Source: a phage
Strand: one strand, 5' to 3'
Length of the DNA stretch: 64,000 nt
Sequence record: PZ027503.1
Below, piece after piece: positions 15,980-57,581 of the stretch. The position numbers and the translations under genes were made by a program. Numbering within the stretch: the stretch's first letter is position 1; each line of letters opens with the position of its first letter. The notes below the pieces were generated by a model that worked only from the letters and a program-made list of their open reading frames with translations, ran no database searches and was not told the origin of the DNA.

Positions 15980-16174
15980 ATGCAGAGCGGAGAAGAACTT
16001 TTAGAGAAACAATTCTCAACGCGTCAACAAGCTTTAAGTTATATGGTTTTTCTAAGCAATCTTGATGTGAATGAGATACTTTTACGGCGCGAAGGTAATT
16101 TCTGGAGCGTTAAATATCATGCAACAAGGTCTGTAATCTACCTGGAAGAGGCGGAATTCTCTTTGGTAGAATGA
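15980..16174 (+). CDS. hypothetical protein
   Basis: ORF in track; GGAGGG RBS. Confidence 0.45.
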   Translation: MQSGEELLEKQFSTRQQALSYMVFLSNLDVNEILLRREGNFWSVKYHATRSVIYLEEAEFSLVE

Positions 16175-16188
16175 TCCTAGGAGTAGTT

Positions 16189-16761
16189 ATGCGTTCAACT
16201 TTCACTGGCAAAATAAATGCTGGTTTGATTTTTACAGCAGTAAGCATTCTTAGCAAAAAGTTTAAAGTTGTTAACTTACCTGTGTGTGTCGATTTCGATC
16301 ATGTTTTTGATCCTTCGAACCCCACTCGTTGCATAGTAAGGAGTAATGTTGAAAACCCAACAGAAAATCTTTTTTATGTAACAAAACCATCTCAAAGCAT
16401 ACTTAACCAGGTTGAGGCGAAATTGATACCTAACGGTAAATATTACTCCTTTTTACCTTGTAAGTCGGTTGAAGTAGAGAATAGCAATACTTTCGCTAAT
16501 AACTTGTCTGTATTCGTTTTCTTTGTTTCACAGGAAGACGAAACAGATGAAATGGTAGCAACAGTGAGATCACTTTATGACTCTTTAGGGGTTGTTTATA
16601 GTCAACAAGTGTGCGAAAATAATAAAGCCTGTGTAGATTTCATTATCAACGGTATTTGTGTTTGTAGAGTAGAATCTTTTTGGCTGCACGATACATATGT
16701 GACTGTAGCAGAGGTTATATCTGAACCAAGATTTAGTCATGCGGTTTCGTTAATAATTTGA
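16189..16761 (+). CDS. hypothetical protein
   Basis: ORF in track trimmed to ATG 16189 after AGGAG. Confidence 0.45.
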   Translation: MRSTFTGKINAGLIFTAVSILSKKFKVVNLPVCVDFDHVFDPSNPTRCIVRSNVENPTENLFYVTKPSQSILNQVEAKLIPNGKYYSFLPCKSVEVENSNTFANNLSVFVFFVSQEDETDEMVATVRSLYDSLGVVYSQQVCENNKACVDFIINGICVCRVESFWLHDTYVTVAEVISEPRFSHAVSLII

Positions 16762-17101: not shown

Positions 17102-17841
17102 TCATACACAGAGAAATTACTGTTAAAAGCGATCAAGATCTTTTTATAATTGGAGATCTACACGGTTGTTATAATTTGTATGAAAAAGGAAAGGCAAAGT
17201 TAGGTATCAGAGATACAGATGTGGTTGTATCTCTAGGAGATCTTACTGACCGTGGAAAGCAAAACTTTCGTTGTGTTTTAGAATTTACTCGTAAACACAA
17301 TCGCTACGCTATTCGTGGCAATCATGAAGACATGATGATTAAAGGTATGCTAGAAGGAGATCGTAGCTACTACGAGTGTTGGTATCAAAATGGAGGATAT
17401 ACGGTCTTTGAAGAATGTGGTGAAGAAGGAGCTACAGCCTTAGCAATGATGACAGAAGATTTACCTGTTGTTCTCGTTGTTAACTACAGAGGCATGAAAC
17501 TTGCGTTTATTCATGGTGGGTATCCCTCTTCTTTGGAATATCTCCCTGTAACAGATATTCCAGAATACATTTCGAAGATGACAAAAACACAGGAAAACCG
17601 TTTTGCTGAAGCACTTATGTGGGACAGAGATATGGTAGACTGTGCTAAAGAGGGAATGAAACTTCCTGTTGTGATGGGTGTGGATTATGTGTTTCATGGA
17701 CACTCTTATGTAAAAACACCTATTATCAATGCGAATCGTGTTTATATGGATACTGGATCTGTGTTCAATAATAACTTAACATTTGCTTATTTCGATATGG
17801 ACGGTGGTCTTCAATTTTATTCAACTCTTGAGGAGGATTAA
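17098..17841 (+). CDS. Ser/Thr protein phosphatase (calcineurin-like metallophosphoesterase)
   Basis: GDLHG, GDLTDRG, GNHE metallophosphatase motifs in canonical order. Confidence 0.8.
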   Translation: MIIHREITVKSDQDLFIIGDLHGCYNLYEKGKAKLGIRDTDVVVSLGDLTDRGKQNFRCVLEFTRKHNRYAIRGNHEDMMIKGMLEGDRSYYECWYQNGGYTVFEECGEEGATALAMMTEDLPVVLVVNYRGMKLAFIHGGYPSSLEYLPVTDIPEYISKMTKTQENRFAEALMWDRDMVDCAKEGMKLPVVMGVDYVFHGHSYVKTPIINANRVYMDTGSVFNNNLTFAYFDMDGGLQFYSTLEED

Positions 17842-18149
17842 TGTATAAGATTACAATTATTCAAAGTGTAGGTAATATCCGTAAAGAAGTTATCTTAGAA
17901 ACAGAAGATGTTAATCTTGTTCGTGAGATTGTTCTTAAGGAAGATAACCTGCAAGCTGTAGAATCAGATGCACCGAATCTTATGGTGGATCAAGAATATT
18001 CTGAACTTCGTCGTATTTTTGAAGAGATTCAGAAGAAAGAAACACAACCGACCATAAAACCTTTTGGTCCTTATGATCCGAGCAATCCTAGCAGTCCTTG
18101 GATCATGAGAAATACGGAACCGTATACACCTTTTGAAATTACTTGTTGA
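17841..18149 (+). CDS. hypothetical protein
   Basis: ORF in track; ATGA-type overlap. Confidence 0.45.
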   Translation: MYKITIIQSVGNIRKEVILETEDVNLVREIVLKEDNLQAVESDAPNLMVDQEYSELRRIFEEIQKKETQPTIKPFGPYDPSNPSSPWIMRNTEPYTPFEITC

Positions 18150-18156
18150 GGTGATT

Positions 18157-18738
18157 ATGGCAGAACTGTTCTATACGGGAGTTGGAAGTAGAGACATATC
18201 CGAAGAAGAGTGGGCTTTGATGGTAGGCATAGGGAAATGGCTTTCAAACCTTGGGTTTAAATTAAGGTCTGGGAAGGCAGAGGGTAGTGATTCTGCTTTT
18301 GAAACAGGTGTCCAAGAGTCTGAAAATCCTACTAACAAGGAGATTTATGTTCCTTGGGAAAATTTCAAAGGTAATCAGATTCCAGGGGATGTTATTGTTC
18401 TTGCAAAACCAGATACAATGAACTATGCTATCTCTGTGCAATGGATCAAAGATGTTCACCCAGCCTATGAAAAGCTTAAGCAGGGTGCTAGAAAATTGCA
18501 CCAACGTAATGTGCATCAAGTGTTAGGTAGAGATTTGGAGAATCCTGCTCCATCATGTTTCTTGTTGGCTTGTGCTAATACTGATAAACATGGAGATGCA
18601 AAAGGTGGAACAGCTACGGCTTGGAAGATAGCTAAAGCCAATAATGTTCCTTGTTTAAACATTCGTGGGAAAACAAAACAAGAGATTTACGATTTTCTAC
18701 GACCTTTGGTAATGAGGGCAATAACAAGTGATTCCTAA
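18157..18738 (+). CDS. SLOG-superfamily (DprA/LOG-like) Rossmann-fold protein
   Basis: YTGVGSR...RSGKAEGSDSAFETG...KGGTATAWKIA resembles DprA/LOG glycine-rich motifs; start at ATG 18157 after GAGGTGA. Confidence 0.4.
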   Translation: MAELFYTGVGSRDISEEEWALMVGIGKWLSNLGFKLRSGKAEGSDSAFETGVQESENPTNKEIYVPWENFKGNQIPGDVIVLAKPDTMNYAISVQWIKDVHPAYEKLKQGARKLHQRNVHQVLGRDLENPAPSCFLLACANTDKHGDAKGGTATAWKIAKANNVPCLNIRGKTKQEIYDFLRPLVMRAITSDS

Positions 18739-19240
18739 ACGTAAACGTGGTGAACAAAGAACAAACTTGGCAGAAATCTTAGATTACAACATGGTTAATG
18801 ATGTGACAAAAGAAATTCTGCCTGTTGTAGAAGATATTCTTCAAAGAGGGTTACGATTCTGCTCGGATCGGGTGCATTTCATGTGGACACATAAAAGTGA
18901 CTCCGCTTTGAATTTCTATCCTTTGGATTATACTCTGAACAATACAGAGATGAAAGATATCAACAAATACTTAATGGGATATAAAGATATAACCGAAACC
19001 GTTCTTGGAGAATTGGCAGAAATCTTGGCTAACGATATTCTTAGAAATATTAATAAGGCTCTTGACAGAAGCCCAGCAGGAGTAGTAGTATCTTTTGCTG
19101 TGCCAGATATGGTTAAATATGAGTCTACAATACCTAATAAAGCTTATGCCTTTCTTCGGAGAGACGTTCGTGGAAATGTGTTGGAGATGGAGTCAAACTA
19201 CAAGATTGAGGAGGTTTTATGGCAGAGTTCGGATCAGTAA
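18728..19240 (+). CDS. hypothetical protein
   Basis: ORF in track. Confidence 0.45.
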   Translation: MIPKRKRGEQRTNLAEILDYNMVNDVTKEILPVVEDILQRGLRFCSDRVHFMWTHKSDSALNFYPLDYTLNNTEMKDINKYLMGYKDITETVLGELAEILANDILRNINKALDRSPAGVVVSFAVPDMVKYESTIPNKAYAFLRRDVRGNVLEMESNYKIEEVLWQSSDQ

Positions 19241-19509
19241 CAAGTTTTGAAAGTAACTTCGTTACCGCTTGGGAAGCTTGGGATGAAATGGGTGTTGGGG
19301 AACTTTATTTTTACAATGTAACACTACGTCCAGAGTATGCTTACCTGGTACCAGAAGGAACAGTTCAAATTGGCATGTATCTGTCTTCTCAAGATGGTGT
19401 TGTTCAATTTGAGTTTTATTCAAACACAACGGACAACGAATTTACATATCGTGCATTTCATGTCAACATGTCTTTAGGAGAGGAGAAATTTTATGACGAC
19501 CAAGTTTAA
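19219..19509 (+). CDS. hypothetical protein
   Basis: ORF in track. Confidence 0.45.
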   Translation: MAEFGSVTSFESNFVTAWEAWDEMGVGELYFYNVTLRPEYAYLVPEGTVQIGMYLSSQDGVVQFEFYSNTTDNEFTYRAFHVNMSLGEEKFYDDQV

Positions 19510-19690
19510 AACAGTAGAAGAAGCCGTAAAAGCAGCTTATGAGGCTTTAGCGGAAGCAGAGCAGTTAGCAGATGAGACTGGTAAAGGTTTCCGTTTCTCC
19601 CCTGAATATGGGATGGGTGGCTATTATGATCCAGAAGATGAAAATGAGAATACTGGAACAAATTGGCATCCATCTTCTTTAAGTTGTTAA
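19493..19690 (+). CDS. small acidic protein ending in NWHPSSLSC
   Basis: ORF in track; GGAGAGGAG RBS; C-terminal W-x-SS-x-SC shared with next two small genes. Confidence 0.5.
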   Translation: MTTKFKTVEEAVKAAYEALAEAEQLADETGKGFRFSPEYGMGGYYDPEDENENTGTNWHPSSLSC

Positions 19691-19701: not shown

Positions 19702-19971
19702 GTGGGAATCGAAGATATCAAAGGTTATAAACCGCATACCGATGACAAAATTGGTAAAGTGAATGCTATTAAAGATGCTGAAGTTCGATTAGGATTAATC
19801 TTTGATGCTCTAATGTCTGAATTGTGGGCTGAACTGGATGATTGTGAAGATTTGGAAGAGTCTACCAATATATCCACCCGCCTTGACCAAATTTCAATAG
19901 CAAAGACTAAGTTGAAAGAAGCTTCTATGTGGGCCTGTCGTTCCGTTTTCCAACCAGAGGAGAAATACTAA
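19702..19971 (+). CDS. hypothetical protein
   Basis: ORF in track trimmed to GTG 19702 after TAGGAGG. Confidence 0.4.
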   Translation: MGIEDIKGYKPHTDDKIGKVNAIKDAEVRLGLIFDALMSELWAELDDCEDLEESTNISTRLDQISIAKTKLKEASMWACRSVFQPEEKY

Positions 19972-20189
19972 TGAGTGATCGTAATGTTGAAGAATTAACT
20001 GAAAAAGCCCAAGCTATTATGGCTTTAGTGGACGAACTTACAAAAGAAGCTGAAGATGCTGGTTTTGGTCTTAGTTTAGAAAATGACGCAATCTGTTTTG
20101 AAGATTGGCAATCCTCTTCTTGTTATGGTGAAGGTGATGATGGTTTCGTCGTTAATTCTCAAGGCGTTTGGCACAGTAGTAGCTGTTAA
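19971..20189 (+). CDS. small acidic protein with internal WQSSSC and C-terminal VWHSSSC
   Basis: ATG 19971 after GAGGAGAAA; paralogous N-terminal helix with 19493 gene. Confidence 0.5.
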   Translation: MSDRNVEELTEKAQAIMALVDELTKEAEDAGFGLSLENDAICFEDWQSSSCYGEGDDGFVVNSQGVWHSSSC

Positions 20190-20198
20190 GGAGAGATT

Positions 20199-20471
20199 GT
20201 GGAGTCTGAAGGCGAACTGCTGATAAAAAAGAAAGTTAAAGAGATGGAACAAGCACAAAGAAAGTTTCGTAAGGAGATTGAAGAACTTTGTGAACAGTTT
20301 CAGGAACAAGCTTGGATAGGTGACTACGGTAACGGAGAAACTTATTACCCTACAGGAACGCCAGCCGCAGATCACTATATTGATTTCATTTGTGAAGATT
20401 ATGGTGTAGAGTTGGATGAAAATGGTTTAACCACAAGAGGTGTTTGGATCTCTTCTTCCTCAATGTGTTAG
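20199..20471 (+). CDS. small acidic protein ending in VWISSSSMC
   Basis: GTG start after AAGGAGAG; same C-terminal motif class. Confidence 0.5.
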   Translation: MESEGELLIKKKVKEMEQAQRKFRKEIEELCEQFQEQAWIGDYGNGETYYPTGTPAADHYIDFICEDYGVELDENGLTTRGVWISSSSMC

Positions 20472-20480
20472 TAAATAATA

Positions 20481-20502
20481 ACCCGCTTCGGCGGGTTTTT
20501 TA
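20481..20502 (+). terminator. intrinsic terminator
   Basis: ACCCGC-ttcg-GCGGGT hairpin followed by TTTTTT. Confidence 0.6.
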
Positions 20503-20531
20503 TTGACAGGAATCTGGAAGCTTGATAAACT
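20503..20531 (+). promoter_or_regulatory. sigma70-like promoter
   Basis: TTGACA, 17-bp spacer, TAAACT. Confidence 0.45.
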
Positions 20532-20561: not shown

Positions 20562-21503
20562 ATGGTGTTAATTGGTAGCCGTGCATTACAAATTCATGCT
20601 ATGGACATGGGAAAAGACTTGTATCGCCCTTGTGTAGATTTAGATTACCTGTGTACAGAACAAGAGTGGGAAGAATTATCAAAAATGTTCTCTCAAGATG
20701 AGTTTGTTGAACTTGTAGAACGTAAAGGAAACAAAGGCCATGTCAAAATGATAGCTGGTGCACATTTGGAATACGATATTGCTTCTCAAGGAGATAGCAC
20801 AGAAGCTTTGATTAGTTATTGTGAAGATTCTGATGATGTTCGTCGAACTTACGCTGGACATGTTGTTGCTCCTTTAGATGTGCTCTACCTTCTTAAAATG
20901 AGTCATCGTTTTAAAAAAGATAGTCCTCACTTCTTTAAAACTATGAAAGATATTCATTTCATGCGGTCACTGGGCGCAAAGATCCCAGAAAATCTTAAGA
21001 GTATTTATGAGTTGCGTGAGAAAGAAACATACACTTACTCTCATCCGAACTTAAACGTAAAAAGTAAAGACTTTTTTAAAGGTGATGAGGTTCCGTATGT
21101 TTATGATCATGATTCTATCCATGAAGCAATCGCGGTAATGGATGCTCCGGCATATAAATCTTATATGAAAGATGGAAGTGAAGTTATGACCAGCAAAGAA
21201 AAGTTTTTTGCTCAACCAAAACATGTGCGCCTGTTAGGTGTTTATGAAGAAGCGTGTGTTTTGGCTTTGGAACGTTCACAAATTCCTTTCGGTGGAGAGA
21301 TCGGAGGTCCAACCCCTAAGCAAAGTTTTATAATGGCTTTATCTAAAGTCTGCACATCCATCACTAGTGGTTGGTTTAGGGAATATGCTTGGGAAAACTT
21401 TTATGTTGTTATTAAACTATATGAAAACATGGGCGAAAACGACTATGTTGAACGTTTTAAAGCTAATCAACATGTAGTAAAGCCTTTTGAAGGAGGTTAT
21501 TAA
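20562..21503 (+). CDS. hypothetical protein (possible nucleotidyltransferase-like fold, weak)
   Basis: 313 aa; N-terminal IGSRA...VDLDYL loosely resembles GS...DxD of Pol-beta-type NTases but spacing atypical. Confidence 0.5.
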   Translation: MVLIGSRALQIHAMDMGKDLYRPCVDLDYLCTEQEWEELSKMFSQDEFVELVERKGNKGHVKMIAGAHLEYDIASQGDSTEALISYCEDSDDVRRTYAGHVVAPLDVLYLLKMSHRFKKDSPHFFKTMKDIHFMRSLGAKIPENLKSIYELREKETYTYSHPNLNVKSKDFFKGDEVPYVYDHDSIHEAIAVMDAPAYKSYMKDGSEVMTSKEKFFAQPKHVRLLGVYEEACVLALERSQIPFGGEIGGPTPKQSFIMALSKVCTSITSGWFREYAWENFYVVIKLYENMGENDYVERFKANQHVVKPFEGGY

Positions 21504-23287: not shown

Positions 23288-23773
23288 ATGTTTCAAGTAA
23301 ATGTCAATGTGCATAATAGTTACTCTGATTGTGAAACGTGTGGCTATAATTCATCTAATGTTATTCGTATTAGTGGCGATTTAGGAGAAGCTTCTTTTGG
23401 AGAAGAAGCAAGTTGCTTTAGTGGTATGGATGCAGAATGGAATGATATTGCACATTGGTTAGTGAGCAAACTAAAAGAAAAAGAGAAACCATTTCCTACT
23501 CTGCTTGATCGTTCTCTTGTGGAAGATGCAGGTAAAGCATACGCAGACTATGCGTATGCAGACGGGAAATATTTGGAAGATGATAAGGCTAACCATTTGC
23601 TTTATGTTTACTATGAAGCTGAATCTGCCTACGATAATTATTACAGCATGTCTAACATCCTACGTCTGTTTGCAGAGTTTGATATTTATTTCGAAGTAGA
23701 ATTTTCAGAAGATGATACTTACGAGTACAATTCTTATGATCCATTTGAGGAGGAAGAATGCCAAGACGAGTGA
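23288..23773 (+). CDS. hypothetical acidic protein
   Basis: ORF in track; GGAGGGA RBS. Confidence 0.5.
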   Translation: MFQVNVNVHNSYSDCETCGYNSSNVIRISGDLGEASFGEEASCFSGMDAEWNDIAHWLVSKLKEKEKPFPTLLDRSLVEDAGKAYADYAYADGKYLEDDKANHLLYVYYEAESAYDNYYSMSNILRLFAEFDIYFEVEFSEDDTYEYNSYDPFEEEECQDE

Positions 23774-24573
23774 TTTTTGTAAGCGGTGCAGGTTTAAGTG
23801 CAGACAGTGGGATTCGAACATTTAGAACAGACACAGATAGTGGTCGTGCTTTATGGGAAGAATATGATTTAGAAGAGGTCTGCGATATTGGAGCTTTCCA
23901 AGCAGGTTATCGTGTTAGAACATCTCCAGATCTTCCAGTGGTCGGTGGTGTAGACGAGAACGGTATGGATTTGTATGCCAAAACACACGAATTTTATAAC
24001 AAAAGACGTGTTGAGCTTAAAGATGTACAACCTAATGCTGCACATATTCAAATAGCAAAGTGGTTTAAGGAATATCCTAACCAAATAGTAAACTTGACAA
24101 CAAACGTTGATGATCTACTAGAGCGAGCAGGTGTAGACAGAGATTCTGTTATTCACGTACACGGCTATCTTCCTGAAGTAGTTTACCGTATGCATCCTGG
24201 AGATTACAAAACACTGGTAGATATTGGTTACAATAGTATAAACATAGATGATTATAACTGGGTGAAGCCTAATGTTGTATTTTTTGGTGAGGCTGCACCT
24301 TTGTATGCAGATATGGCTCACTTGTTCGATACTTTGACCATGCAAGATTTGGTTGTAGTAGTAGGATGTTCAAACCAAGTTATCAATTTTAATTGGGAAT
24401 TATTTCCTGCACTTAGTATGGGTACAAAAATGGTTGTAGTTAACCCTGGAGTTAATTACGAAGAAACACTTCTCTATGAAGATCGTGGAGTTTTTGTTTA
24501 CCGAGAAAAAGCTGCAACAGCCTTCAGCAATGAAGGTTTCATTAAAATGGTCGAAGACCACTTAAACAAATAA
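23758..24573 (+). CDS. Sir2-family (sirtuin/CobB-like) protein lacking the zinc-ribbon cysteines
   Basis: GAGLSADSGIRTFR, QPNAAHIQIAKW, TTNVDDLLERAG, VIHVHG, VVFFGE parallel CobB; the Cys4 segment is absent. Confidence 0.8.
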   Translation: MPRRVIFVSGAGLSADSGIRTFRTDTDSGRALWEEYDLEEVCDIGAFQAGYRVRTSPDLPVVGGVDENGMDLYAKTHEFYNKRRVELKDVQPNAAHIQIAKWFKEYPNQIVNLTTNVDDLLERAGVDRDSVIHVHGYLPEVVYRMHPGDYKTLVDIGYNSINIDDYNWVKPNVVFFGEAAPLYADMAHLFDTLTMQDLVVVVGCSNQVINFNWELFPALSMGTKMVVVNPGVNYEETLLYEDRGVFVYREKAATAFSNEGFIKMVEDHLNK

Positions 24574-57038: not shown

Positions 57039-57581
57039 TCACAAATATCGTCTTTGCGGTATTTTGTCTGGGAAAAGTATTTCGATCAGTTTATTATGAT
57101 ATTTACCTAAAAGATTCTGCCCTTTCCAGGTGGCAGGGTTTAGCACCCCTGGTTCATACATCCCCATTCCAATTCCGTAAACCTTATCGTAGGGGCTTGC
57201 TTCAACAAACGTTTTGTATTGGTAAAGGTGTAAGTCTGCATACAAATCTGGATTCTGTACATATTTCAAGCATAAACCTCGCATAACAATACGCTCACGG
57301 TTCTCTTCCCATACGTTGTTATCAAAATCCGACACTGCCCTACCCATACGTTTGTAATAAGCTTGGATCTTCTCATCTTTCCGTATCAAACTATGAGTCA
57401 GAATAGCCTGTGCAGTGTTGTGATCATTAAAAAGCAAAGCTTTACGCCACATCATGTATTGTTCGACACAATTAAATGTCTGATTGTAACCTGGTTCGGT
57501 TTCTGTAAAGGGTGCAATATACCAATTACTAAAAACATCTTTATGTGAAAAGAAGAATACATAATCATCAGTTATTCGCAT
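57039..57581 (-). CDS. NADAR-domain protein (YbiA-like, DUF1768)
   Basis: FFFS...FSNW, VEQYMMWRKALLF, KRMGR, VEASPYDKVYGIGMG, NLLGK follow the YbiA/NADAR pattern. Confidence 0.75.
   Translation of the reverse strand: MRITDDYVFFFSHKDVFSNWYIAPFTETEPGYNQTFNCVEQYMMWRKALLFNDHNTAQAILTHSLIRKDEKIQAYYKRMGRAVSDFDNNVWEENRERIVMRGLCLKYVQNPDLYADLHLYQYKTFVEASPYDKVYGIGMGMYEPGVLNPATWKGQNLLGKYHNKLIEILFPDKIPQRRYL

Follow-up and report, generated by a model that had tools for sequence, protein, structure and literature searches.

Stand-alone SLOG proteins of viruses were described by Iyer, Burroughs, Anantharaman and Aravind in 2022 (PMC9503650) as phage-encoded and uncharacterised, enriched in medium-sized and large phages, situated in early regions and either fused to or located beside Macro, NADAR and DUF4326 domains. 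The authors ascribed them "primarily to the YpsA-like clade" and predicted that they act on soluble derivatives of ADP-ribose (ADPr). Other SLOG proteins are better characterised. DprA/Smf (PF02481; structures 4LJK/4LJR from H. pylori, 3UQZ from S. pneumoniae and 3MAJ from R. palustris) is encoded by competence regulons. ShosA (8ZVA, 9VZO), whose partner is the PRTase toxin ShosT, forms dimers, carries a SAM domain and binds to RecA. The SLOG domain of ThsA, from the Thoeris system (7UXS, 6LHX), serves as the sensor in a fusion with a Sir2 effector, and LOG/PpnN/YgdH and the Moco-carrier proteins (MCP; 2IZ5, 5WQ3, 9US2, 1RCU) carry the motif PGGxGTxxE. In the H. pylori DprA (HpDprA), R52 serves as the "switch" arginine of the pocket, while F140, R143 and N144 orient a base of ssDNA into it; the substitutions R52E and R143E lower the affinity for ssDNA about 315-fold and 173-fold, and ssDNA binding persists in the truncated Rossmann domain on its own (PMC3950713). 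Two kinds of enzyme whose folds are unrelated to SLOG also enter the argument: DarG (a Macro domain plus a DarT-binding domain) takes ADP-ribose off thymidine on ssDNA (PMC5179494), and NADARs, known as antitoxins and as orphan phage proteins, take it off guanine in DNA, one study having found that the NADAR of T4 gave no rescue of cells from DarT1 in vivo (PMC11125620).

The gene considered here lies in a stretch of 64,000 nucleotides of phage DNA (sequence record PZ027503.1), the whole of which I will call the window. Its features are collected in Table 1. The product, 193 amino acids long, is 100% identical to gp207 of Escherichia phage nepoznato (YP_009985924.1), and its start codon at 18157 is the one given in RefSeq. 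The stop codon of the preceding gene (17841-18149) contributes its final two bases to the Shine-Dalgarno-like sequence, an overlap from which it follows that the genes form a tightly packed operon. That gene and the two on the other side (18728-19240 and 19219-19509) match only PHROGs of unknown function, and none of the three has a Pfam match. In nepoznato, the DNA-metabolism operon around the gene includes a ligase, exonucleases and an RdgC-like protein. The transcription unit to which the SLOG gene belongs likely has its 3' end at the downstream hairpin.

Table 1. Features of the SLOG gene, its signals and a candidate partner gene, in window coordinates.
Feature	Position	Strand	Remarks
SLOG gene	18157..18738	+	193-aa single-domain DprA-clade product; PHROG 768
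Shine-Dalgarno-like GAGGTG	18148..18153	+	3 nt 5' of the ATG; read directly from the sequence
YTGVGSR	18172..18192	+	Residues 6-12, loop after strand 1; DprA motif 1, G-S/T/A-R
RSGKAEGSD	18265..18291	+	Residues 37-45, loop after strand 2; equivalent of DprA SGLARGID
LHQRN	18496..18510	+	Residues 114-118, pocket helix; DprA motif 2, F/L/Y-x-x-R-N/D
KGGTATA	18601..18621	+	Residues 149-155, glycine-rich loop and helix; equivalent of DprA RSGSLITA
GC-rich hairpin (strong), then T-run	20480..20497	+	Terminator-like on both strands; consensus scan only
TTGACA-type promoter-like site	20503		After the hairpin; consensus scan only
NADAR-domain protein	57039..57581	-	180 aa; custom NADAR HMM, E=1e-3; phmmer, E=3.7e-15 to PDB 8BAU

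The original prediction, made from the sequence alone, was of a stand-alone SLOG-like protein of the DprA/LOG fold, and that much has held up. The protein is a three-layer alpha/beta Rossmannoid with glycine-rich loops after strands 1 and 2 and a late GG(T/S), that is, a SLOG Rossmann fold, and it matches PHROG 768 ("DprA-like DNA recombination-mediator protein") from residue 2 to 182 against positions 2-180 of the 191 in the profile (E=2e-62, 211 bits). RefSeq gives the identical protein the same mediator name. The outcome that had been named as fatal to the prediction, a non-Rossmann fold or top matches to unrelated families, did not occur. Searches of Pfam, NCBIfam and PDB with the single sequence returned nothing significant, and the assignment draws on profiles and structure prediction. 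Against Pfam PF02481 the protein scores 12.7 bits over residues 9-52 only (E=0.07; gathering cutoff 29.6), and 39 of 56 family members match that profile at E<0.01, the best at 2.6e-7, so the family is a divergent outlier of the Pfam DprA. Not one of the 56 matches the Pfam profiles for LOG (Lysine_decarbox), YpsA or YAcAr.

A profile search of PDB with the family found only DprA, and hhalign of the family against DprA gave E=7e-6 with every motif in register; the local alignment spans residues 9-54 only, the full-length register coming from a relaxed MAC or global alignment cross-checked by MAFFT --add. When profiles and structures were compared with DprA, LOG and ThsA, as had been proposed along with the prediction, DprA was closer than ThsA, which proved a farther structural neighbour than DprA, MCP or LOG. 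No match to the ThsA SLOG domain was found at the level of sequence, and the phage protein stands alone, with neither a Sir2 nor a TM effector. Nor does it belong, by match or by closest fold, with PF06908 (YpsA) or PF10686 (YAcAr, DUF2493): in a fold search of BFVD, viral YAcAr/DUF2493 SLOG proteins compare with the family at a TM-score of about 0.44, as against 0.75-0.81 within the family. The protein is thus of the DprA clade within SLOG, by motif, Pfam and fold, whereas the viral proteins of Iyer et al. were described as mostly YpsA-like. Their other traits, the kind of phage, the early regions and the partner domains, are reproduced in this family.

The loops YTGVGSR and KGGTATAWKIA had been singled out as glycine-rich ligand-binding loops, and both do align with those of DprA. 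G10, S11 and R12 correspond to HpDprA G50, T51 and R52 (R12 also to R115 of the S. pneumoniae protein, SpDprA), L114, R117 and N118 to F140, R143 and N144, and G151 to G164, with motifs as defined in PMC3950713. All these pocket residues of HpDprA have counterparts that are invariant or nearly so: across 56 sequences, G10, R12, H115, R117 and N118 never vary, and S11 is conserved to at least 90%. The geometry of the pocket is taken from alignments, in which HpDprA Y108 and P135 cannot be placed with certainty. The glutamate of the LOG motif PGGxGTxxE is absent from the loop, which reads KGGTATAWK, and no glutamate is conserved there in the family. The polar positions that are invariant in the family, beyond those of DprA itself, form an unusually sharp set. 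R37, W67, H115 and Q121 are invariants specific to it (DprA has a hydrophobic residue at the position of R37), and the segment from strand 3 to the RN helix differs from that of DprA. Judged from these alignments, the 193-aa protein would bind ssDNA. Conservation of the pocket cannot in itself separate ssDNA from a soluble ligand, since LOG and ThsA hold free nucleotides in the same place. Net charge and isoelectric point were also tried as marks of DNA binders and set aside as non-discriminating (isoelectric point: family median 7.7; Rossmann domains of true DprA proteins 5.8-9.2).

What surrounds the pocket in DprA is another matter. The SAM domain and the C-terminal DML1/winged helix are absent, the 193 residues being Rossmann core throughout. 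The residues through which SpDprA binds RecA and dimerises are known (PMC4066776). In the alignment, E235, M238, D243 and E265 become K157, K160, P165 and R170, the family columns at E235, D243, E265 and M238 reading N/K/M, P, R/N/T and K, respectively, in a comparison tempered by the weak conservation of the acidic triad among DprA proteins themselves (PMC4066776). Of the dimer interface (G249/S250/I263/Q264/L269/T271/D275), which the phage protein does not appear to retain, G249, S250, I263 and Q264 fall within a 17-residue deletion that takes out the hairpin used for dimerisation; in its place the C-terminus has one helix (174-191). By the alignment, then, the determinants of RecA binding and dimerisation are lost. 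Since these residues are substituted or deleted and both accessory domains are missing, the label "recombination mediator" is doubtful and probably misleading, and annotation pipelines keep spreading it.

Clues to function come from the company that the family keeps. Fusions are scarce, with about 7 in the 150 best representatives and another two on plasmids; the great majority, the present protein included, stand alone. The module is joined to NADAR in two proteins (P0141, P0224), to DUF4326 in one (P0193) and to phrog_2072 in another (P0215), and two giant proteins (P0122, P0123) combine two copies of it with YAcAr and NADAR. No identity was found for the extra domains of P0236 and P0245, and for those of P0222 and P0239 the only match is phrog_9995, a group without an assigned function. 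In the two plasmid proteins the partner is a Macro domain, which in the Erythrobacter plasmid is of the DarG type (E=2.9e-32 to 5M3I and 2.1e-27 to 5M31). The module itself is neither Macro nor NADAR, and any part that it has in de-ADP-ribosylation is suggested only by association with these recurrent fusion partners and neighbours, which act on the module's proposed ligand, ssDNA.

Among 41 independent phage lineages, the neighbours include Macro-like genes in 6 (at a median of 0.95 kb upstream), NAMPT-like genes in 5, Prs-like genes in 4 and NADAR at two loci. These are raw counts, as are those for genes of dNTP metabolism (PhoH, RNR, ThyX), which, counted with no background control, are equally frequent (PhoH in 10 of the 41), so that adjacency may reflect only a shared "early auxiliary" region. 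No immediate neighbour is conserved across the 41 lineages, no RecA/UvsX/SSB cluster emerged among the neighbours, and no family of recombinases recurs. On conjugative plasmids the module lies among genes for handling ssDNA, in one block with SRAP, thermonuclease and SSB on the same strand; recA, RdgC and DUF1071 are near it in some plasmids, RdgC and DUF1071 together in one from Aromatoleum. SRAP proteins (HMCES/YedK family) shield abasic sites in ssDNA. In Sphingomonad plasmids the SRAP gene is 1.5 kb upstream on the same strand at 27 loci, which represent essentially one lineage of plasmid backbone; for these high-GC loci ORFs were called with a GC3 filter, supplemented by ORF-independent tblastn.

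In the phage at hand, NADAR and a Macro-like protein (gp077 in nepoznato) are encoded separately from the SLOG module. A distance of 38 kb separates the NADAR gene from the SLOG gene, the two lying on opposite strands, and RefSeq calls the NADAR product just "hypothetical protein"; the phmmer match to PDB 8BAU is to an entry entitled "NADAR domain-containing protein". As NADAR is elsewhere the commonest domain fused to this SLOG family, the protein is a candidate partner that may act in trans.

The reading that I prefer, at a probability of roughly 0.4, is that the protein is a module with a pocket for ssDNA or its bases, tied to the reversal of DNA ADP-ribosylation. It would be a minimal single-domain SLOG of the DprA branch that keeps a small, positively charged pocket for base insertion (G10-S11-R12, L114-x-x-R117-N118, G151) and has lost everything needed for loading RecA: SAM domain, winged helix, dimerisation hairpin and acidic triad. 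Made early, from the operon for DNA and nucleotide metabolism, it would bind exposed single strands, or a modified base that they display, and so guard or target the invading DNA in concert with NADAR, acting on ADP-ribosylated guanine, and a Macro of the DarG/TARG1 type, acting on thymine, enzymes fused to it in many relatives and separate here. Both that coupling and a role in counter-defence, for example against toxins of the DarT type, are suggested by these associations. The protein probably helps invading DNA cope with attack by the host, rather than promoting recombination. A bolder reading, possible but on the tentative side, makes the family a class of counter-defence or DNA-care factors, not recognised before, in phages and conjugative plasmids. 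Here the protein is a base-flipping reader of ADP-ribosylated or otherwise damaged bases in exposed ssDNA, which presents them to NADAR or the DarG-type Macro, shields the ssDNA from DarT-like toxins or, as an N-glycosidase, excises the adduct itself. If true, this would be the first demonstration of a SLOG domain working on modified DNA, and would account for the presence, in some 3% of sequenced phages, of a "DprA" unable to load RecA. The finding would be routine if the protein instead proved to be no more than a helper that binds ssDNA.

The original prediction went on from fold to function, proposing a decoy or sponge for nucleotide signals or else a DprA-like protein; clade and motifs favour the latter, and the former survives as a live competing explanation, one that I consider less likely. 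According to it, the SLOG pocket takes in a small immune messenger or toxin derived from NAD+ or ADP-ribose (cADPR isomers, His-ADPR, ADPr-phosphates), much as Iyer et al. predicted for viral SLOG proteins, and either sequesters it or cleaves an N-glycosidic bond, with Macro, NADAR, DUF4326 and Nudix proteins dismantling the rest. The protein, however, is nearer to DprA than to ThsA, YpsA or YAcAr in both sequence and structure and does not have the catalytic glutamate motif of LOG; the fused Macro is of the DarG type, whose known substrate is ADP-ribosylated ssDNA; and the plasmid contexts with SSB, SRAP, nuclease and RdgC go unexplained. No phage sponge is known to have a SLOG fold, and the sponges Tad1, Tad2 and Acb2 are not known to have a fold related to it. 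If the link to de-ADP-ribosylation or to ADPr signals holds, the family is a new player in the evasion of NAD+-dependent immunity (DarTG, Thoeris), with relevance to host range in phage therapy, phAPEC8-like phages being candidates for such use.

The name in the databases implies a DprA in the classical sense, binding phage ssDNA and loading a recombinase, RecA of the host or some other, onto SSB-coated ssDNA for recombination-dependent replication or repair. Homology at the level of the clade, the conserved pocket, the operon with its ligase, exonucleases and RdgC-like protein, the nearby RdgC, DUF1071 and recA on some plasmids, and the capacity of the isolated HpDprA Rossmann domain all speak for this. 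Yet the mediator function of SpDprA and ShosA depends on dimerisation (PMC12961424), and the phage protein lacks the SAM and winged-helix domains and shows substitutions or deletions at the acidic triad and dimer zone; besides the lack of a recurring recombinase neighbour, the annotation of nepoznato positions 1-118000 lists no recombinase of the RecA, UvsX, Erf or Red type. I judge it improbable. Still less probable is an N-glycosidase for ssDNA, in which a modified base, such as an ADP-ribosylated one, is flipped out of ssDNA by the pocket and a glycosidic bond cleaved by the polar residues H115, Q121, D45 and W67, in the way that LOG and other TIR/DrHyd/SLOG enzymes treat free nucleotides. 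The characterised catalytic members of the TIR-DrHyd-SLOG group all hydrolyse or transfer N-glycosidic bonds (PMC9503650), and the sharp set of invariant polar residues and the SRAP gene of the Sphingomonad plasmids fit; but no catalytic motif is shared with LOG, DprA has no catalytic activity of its own, the link to SRAP is confined to that single plasmid lineage, and the fused enzymes that remove ADPr make a second hydrolase partly redundant. Mimicry of ShosA, by which the phage protein would stand in for the unstable DprA-like antitoxin of ShosTA and neutralise ShosT, seems far-fetched. The match between the two extends only over the shared GSR/SG-A-G-D motif, and the family is far wider than expected for a counter to one system. 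Antitoxin activity needs dimerisation, the SAM domain and RecA binding (PMC12961424), and the phage protein has neither that domain nor, by the alignment, the determinants of the other two, on which account this was discarded as the main explanation.

The gene is real and its family already catalogued, with a function that is experimentally uncharacterised; few accessory proteins of phages of which this can be said are as widespread. The family comprises about 6,000 clusters at 50% identity. Of 50,697 phage genomes on deposit, about 1,440 have a member (the 3% mentioned above), and some conjugative plasmids carry them as well. The phages concerned include Phapecoctavirus, Pakpunavirus, Nankokuvirus, N4-like, T4-like and jumbo phages.

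The DprA-like gene starts just behind its upstream neighbor, whose last bases overlap the Shine-Dalgarno sequence, and its 3' end is overlapped by 11 nt by the downstream gene. It is thus part of a tightly packed operon, the apparent end of which is a strong hairpin and T-run. The rightward operon around it encodes functions of DNA and nucleotide metabolism: RNA and DNA ligases, PNK, an RdgC-like protein, exonucleases, ThyX, RNR, glutaredoxin, PhoH, methyltransferases, a NinI-like phosphatase and a Sir2-like protein. The phage is a phAPEC8-like Phapecoctavirus of E. coli, 99.1–99.6% identical in nucleotide sequence to the 15 best-matching records. Since the protein is 100% identical to gp207 of Escherichia phage nepoznato, named "DprA-like DNA recombination-mediator protein" in RefSeq, and matches the like-named PHROG 768 (E = 2e-62), the gene was already catalogued; protein and family are known to RefSeq, PHROGs and VOGs.

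Positions in the window of the DprA-like gene and of other features discussed
Feature	Position	Strand	Remark
'Histidyl tRNA synthetase' (label)	16171-16761	+	196 aa; phrog_4806, E = 3e-64
Upstream gene	end at 18149
Shine-Dalgarno GAGGTG	18148-18153	+	5' of DprA-like gene
DprA-like gene	18157-18738	+	intact, 193 codons, ATG start; many stop codons on the opposite strand
Downstream gene	18728-19240
Tandem paralogue	19493-19690	+
Tandem paralogue	19971-20189	+
Tandem paralogue	20199-20471	+
Hairpin/T-run	20480-20497		apparent operon end
Promoter-like TTGACA/TAAACT	20503-20531
DUF7277 + DUF7275 protein	20562-21503	+	313 aa; E = 8.5e-14 and 7.5e-76; phrog_2141
Sir2-like protein	23758-24573	+	271 aa
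NADAR protein	57039-57581	-	180 aa

The original prediction had drawn a SLOG-like fold from three motifs, which are found at residues 6-12, 37-51 and 149-159, and the fold call was correct. Structure prediction gave neither a non-Rossmann fold nor top matches to unrelated families. In fold comparison the scores were 15.9 for the Moco-carrier protein 2IZ5, 15.6 for DprA 3MAJ, 15.0 for H. pylori DprA (HpDprA, 4LJK), 14.9 for TM1055 (1RCU), 14.2 and 14.0 for the LOG-type proteins 9US2 and 5WQ3, 13.2 for ShosA (the DprA-like antitoxin of ShosTA, 8ZVA), 12.4 for YpsA 2NX2 and 10.9 for the SLOG domain of ThsA (7UXS), while ranks 1–11 of Foldseek against the PDB are DprA and ShosA.

By structure alone DprA cannot be told from Moco-carrier and LOG proteins, but by sequence it can. 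Pfam DprA (PF02481) is matched at E < 0.01 by 39 of the 56 aligned family members and LDcluster4 by four, and none of the 56 matches LOG, YpsA or YAcAr in the Pfam search. In the PDB the family profile retrieves DprA chains and nothing else. Against five solved or reference DprA domains hhalign gives E = 7e-6, and at a relaxed threshold residues 4-182 align with each motif in register (phage/DprA: GVGSR/vGSR, RSGKAEGSD/SGLARGID, KLHQRN/dFPRRN, KGGTATA/RSGSLITA). In Wang et al. (2014; PMC3950713) the DprA domain is defined by two motifs that bind ssDNA, G-S/T/A-R and F/L/Y-x-x-R-N/D, and LOG by PGGxGTxxE; both DprA motifs are invariant in the phage family, and the LOG glutamate is absent from its alignment and residue map. 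YAcAr/DUF2493, the other common viral SLOG family, stands apart, at a TM of ~0.44 as compared to 0.75–0.81 within the family (BFVD). The family thus has the SLOG fold and belongs by motif to the DprA clade; this placement, rather than a YpsA/YAcAr-like one, is new here.

Homologues were found by tblastn in 1,443 of 50,697 phage records, among them N4-like, T4-like and jumbo phages, with hosts that include Klebsiella, Pseudomonas, Escherichia, Aeromonas, Vibrio and Acinetobacter. Searched with a profile, 1.84 billion representatives yielded 5,967 clusters at E ≤ 1e-3 and 2,043 at E ≤ 1e-30; stand-alone proteins of 170–210 aa make up nearly all of these. The set of residues invariant in the 56 sequences is sharp: G10, R12, R37, G39, A41, G43, D45, W67, H115, R117, N118, Q121, G124, S133, G150, G151, T152, T154 and A159. 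The searchable literature yielded no experiments on the family. Judged by residue mapping, the predicted base/ssDNA pocket is conserved: G50/T51/R52, F140, R143, N144 and G164 of HpDprA are kept as G10/S11/R12, L114, R117, N118 and G151. In HpDprA, R52E and R143E lower ssDNA affinity ~315-fold and ~173-fold, respectively (PMC3950713).

Fusions were sought among the 150 best family representatives and in plasmids. The module is joined to NADAR in P0141 and P0224, to DUF4326 in P0193, to phrog_2072 (which shares an IGCGLAG motif with the Macro-like neighbor described below) in P0215, and to a phrog_9995 domain in P0222 and P0239. Two metagenomic polyvalent proteins of ~1,480 aa, P0122 (1475 aa) and P0123 (1488 aa), hold two tandem module copies, a YAcAr SLOG domain, LDcluster4 matches and a C-terminal NADAR. 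Two plasmid proteins fuse the module to a Macro domain; in that of Erythrobacter (module 59-248, Macro 264-400) the Macro part matches the DarG macrodomains 5M3I (E = 2.9e-32) and 5M31 (E = 2.1e-27), antitoxin domains that take ADP-ribose off thymidine on ssDNA (PMC5179494). NADAR enzymes, including those of the phage gp30.3 type, take it off guanine in DNA (PMC11125620), and orphan NADARs of T4-like phages counter DarTG1 (PMC11825919). The module is recurrently fused, then, to DNA-de-ADP-ribosylating domains.

Phage contexts came from 80 IMG/VR loci and six loci of annotated phages; de-replication left 41 lineages, whose DprA-like proteins are <60% identical, and all neighbors were clustered. 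The gene always lies within early or auxiliary blocks, and the 41 lineages have no universal partner and no RecA, UvsX or SSB cluster among the neighbors. One theme is dNTP metabolism (PhoH in 10/41, also RNR, ThyX, dCMP deaminase and glutaredoxin) and another is NAD/ADP-ribose: a Macro-like protein in 6/41 at a median 0.95 kb upstream, NAMPT-family proteins in 5/41, Prs-like in 4/41 and NADAR at two loci. These counts, taken without a background model, are suggestive only. The Macro-like neighbor is phrog_335 ("phosphatase"; Pfam Macro, E = 8e-4; TARG1/OARD1-like, E = 2.7e-5). A string of Prs-like kinase, NAMPT-like, Macro-like ('phosphatase'), two small ORFs and DprA-like gene is conserved in Pakpunavirus vB_PaeM_C2-10_Ab02 (locus L005, 1-4076) and in L051, L059, L061, L062 and L071; its first two genes resemble the published two-enzyme NAD+ reconstitution pathway of phages.

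In 185,579 species genomes that were scanned, 58 loci turned up, the majority in Sphingomonadaceae, and the plasmid collection held 29 records with a homologue, 12 predicted to be conjugative, including pNL1. The Sphingomonad copy sits in a conserved block, same-strand apart from DUF1173: DUF736, hypothetical, SRAP, two hypotheticals, DprA-like, hypothetical, (DUF1173), pentapeptide-repeat protein, thermonuclease, SSB and MucR. This gene set is ssDNA-centered, yet essentially one backbone lineage. In an unrelated Aromatoleum plasmid, RdgC and DUF1071 lie immediately upstream of the DprA-like gene; the plasmid neighbors, then, handle ssDNA. The block, seen in Novosphingobium pNL1 (L151, NC_009426.1 126035-136026) and 57 related loci (L092-L149), looks like the leading region, or an establishment module, of conjugative plasmids.

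What, then, does the protein do? The annotated role, that of a RecA mediator, is unlikely. When the RecA-binding and dimerization determinants of S. pneumoniae DprA (SpDprA; Lisboa et al. 2014, PMC4066776) are mapped, E235, M238, D243 and E265 are replaced by K157, K160, P165 and R170, and G249, S250, I263 and Q264 fall in a 17-residue deletion. The C-terminus is a single helix in the predicted model, which has neither a SAM nor a winged-helix domain. The RecA-loader apparatus has been lost, leaving the database label unsupported by the features examined here, and the absence of those features from the family is new here. Mimicry of ShosA is the least probable reading: SpDprA and ShosA need dimerization and RecA binding to work as mediator and antitoxin (PMC12961424), and the determinants of both are missing here.

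The main competitor, proposed in the original prediction and by Iyer et al., is that the protein binds or degrades soluble signals derived from ADPr; a paper of 2022 already put forward the idea of stand-alone SLOG domains with which phages counter NAD+/ADPr-based immunity. A free nucleotide could occupy the same pocket, so this reading is a real possibility, though a lesser one. What is new here is that the fused partners are specifically enzymes for ADP-ribosylated ssDNA, suggesting that the role is directed at DNA rather than at a signal. I favor, at a probability of roughly 40%, a module that would bind ssDNA, or a modified base on it, and would guard, or do the targeting, for invading DNA, coupled to reversal of DNA ADP-ribosylation. 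That the protein is itself a glycosidase of ssDNA bases is doubtful, somewhat more so than the mediator role. The observation is right and will not surprise specialists; the hypothesis that the family raises is directly testable.

The window NADAR is bona fide (phmmer E = 3.7e-15 to PDB 8BAU), its RefSeq equivalent, nepoznato gp118, being only a 'hypothetical protein'; NADARs of phages are known to act against DarTG1, or suspected of it. Outside the window the genome has a Macro-like protein (nepoznato gp077, E = 2e-49 to the HMM of the Macro-like neighbor cluster). The nepoznato gene for it (NC_052658.1 94332-94805), labelled 'phosphatase', encodes a TARG1/DarG-class Macro-like protein of the family found directly upstream of the DprA-like gene in those six lineages. 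With the Sir2-like protein, SLOG, NADAR, Macro and Sir2 genes thus occur together in this phage, a pattern that Iyer et al. (2022) noted in DNA viruses. The Sir2-like protein is only 66% identical to nepoznato gp193, as against 100% for the DprA-like protein 5.6 kb upstream, and the distance between the two genes is ~1.4 kb shorter in the window than in nepoznato. Together these differences point to an indel, or to local mosaicism, in phages that are nearly identical elsewhere.

The label 'histidyl tRNA synthetase', given by PHROG and RefSeq, looks dubious, since the protein has no Pfam match at all and a second gene of the genome, nepoznato gp087, bears the same label. The DUF7277/DUF7275 gene directly follows the terminator and the promoter-like site. 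The three tandem paralogues, small acidic proteins of 65–90 aa, have in common a helical N-terminus and an invariant W-x-S-S-(S)-x-C tail at the very end of the protein; two of the three match the C-terminus of phrog_899, and together they resemble a small diversifying gene family.
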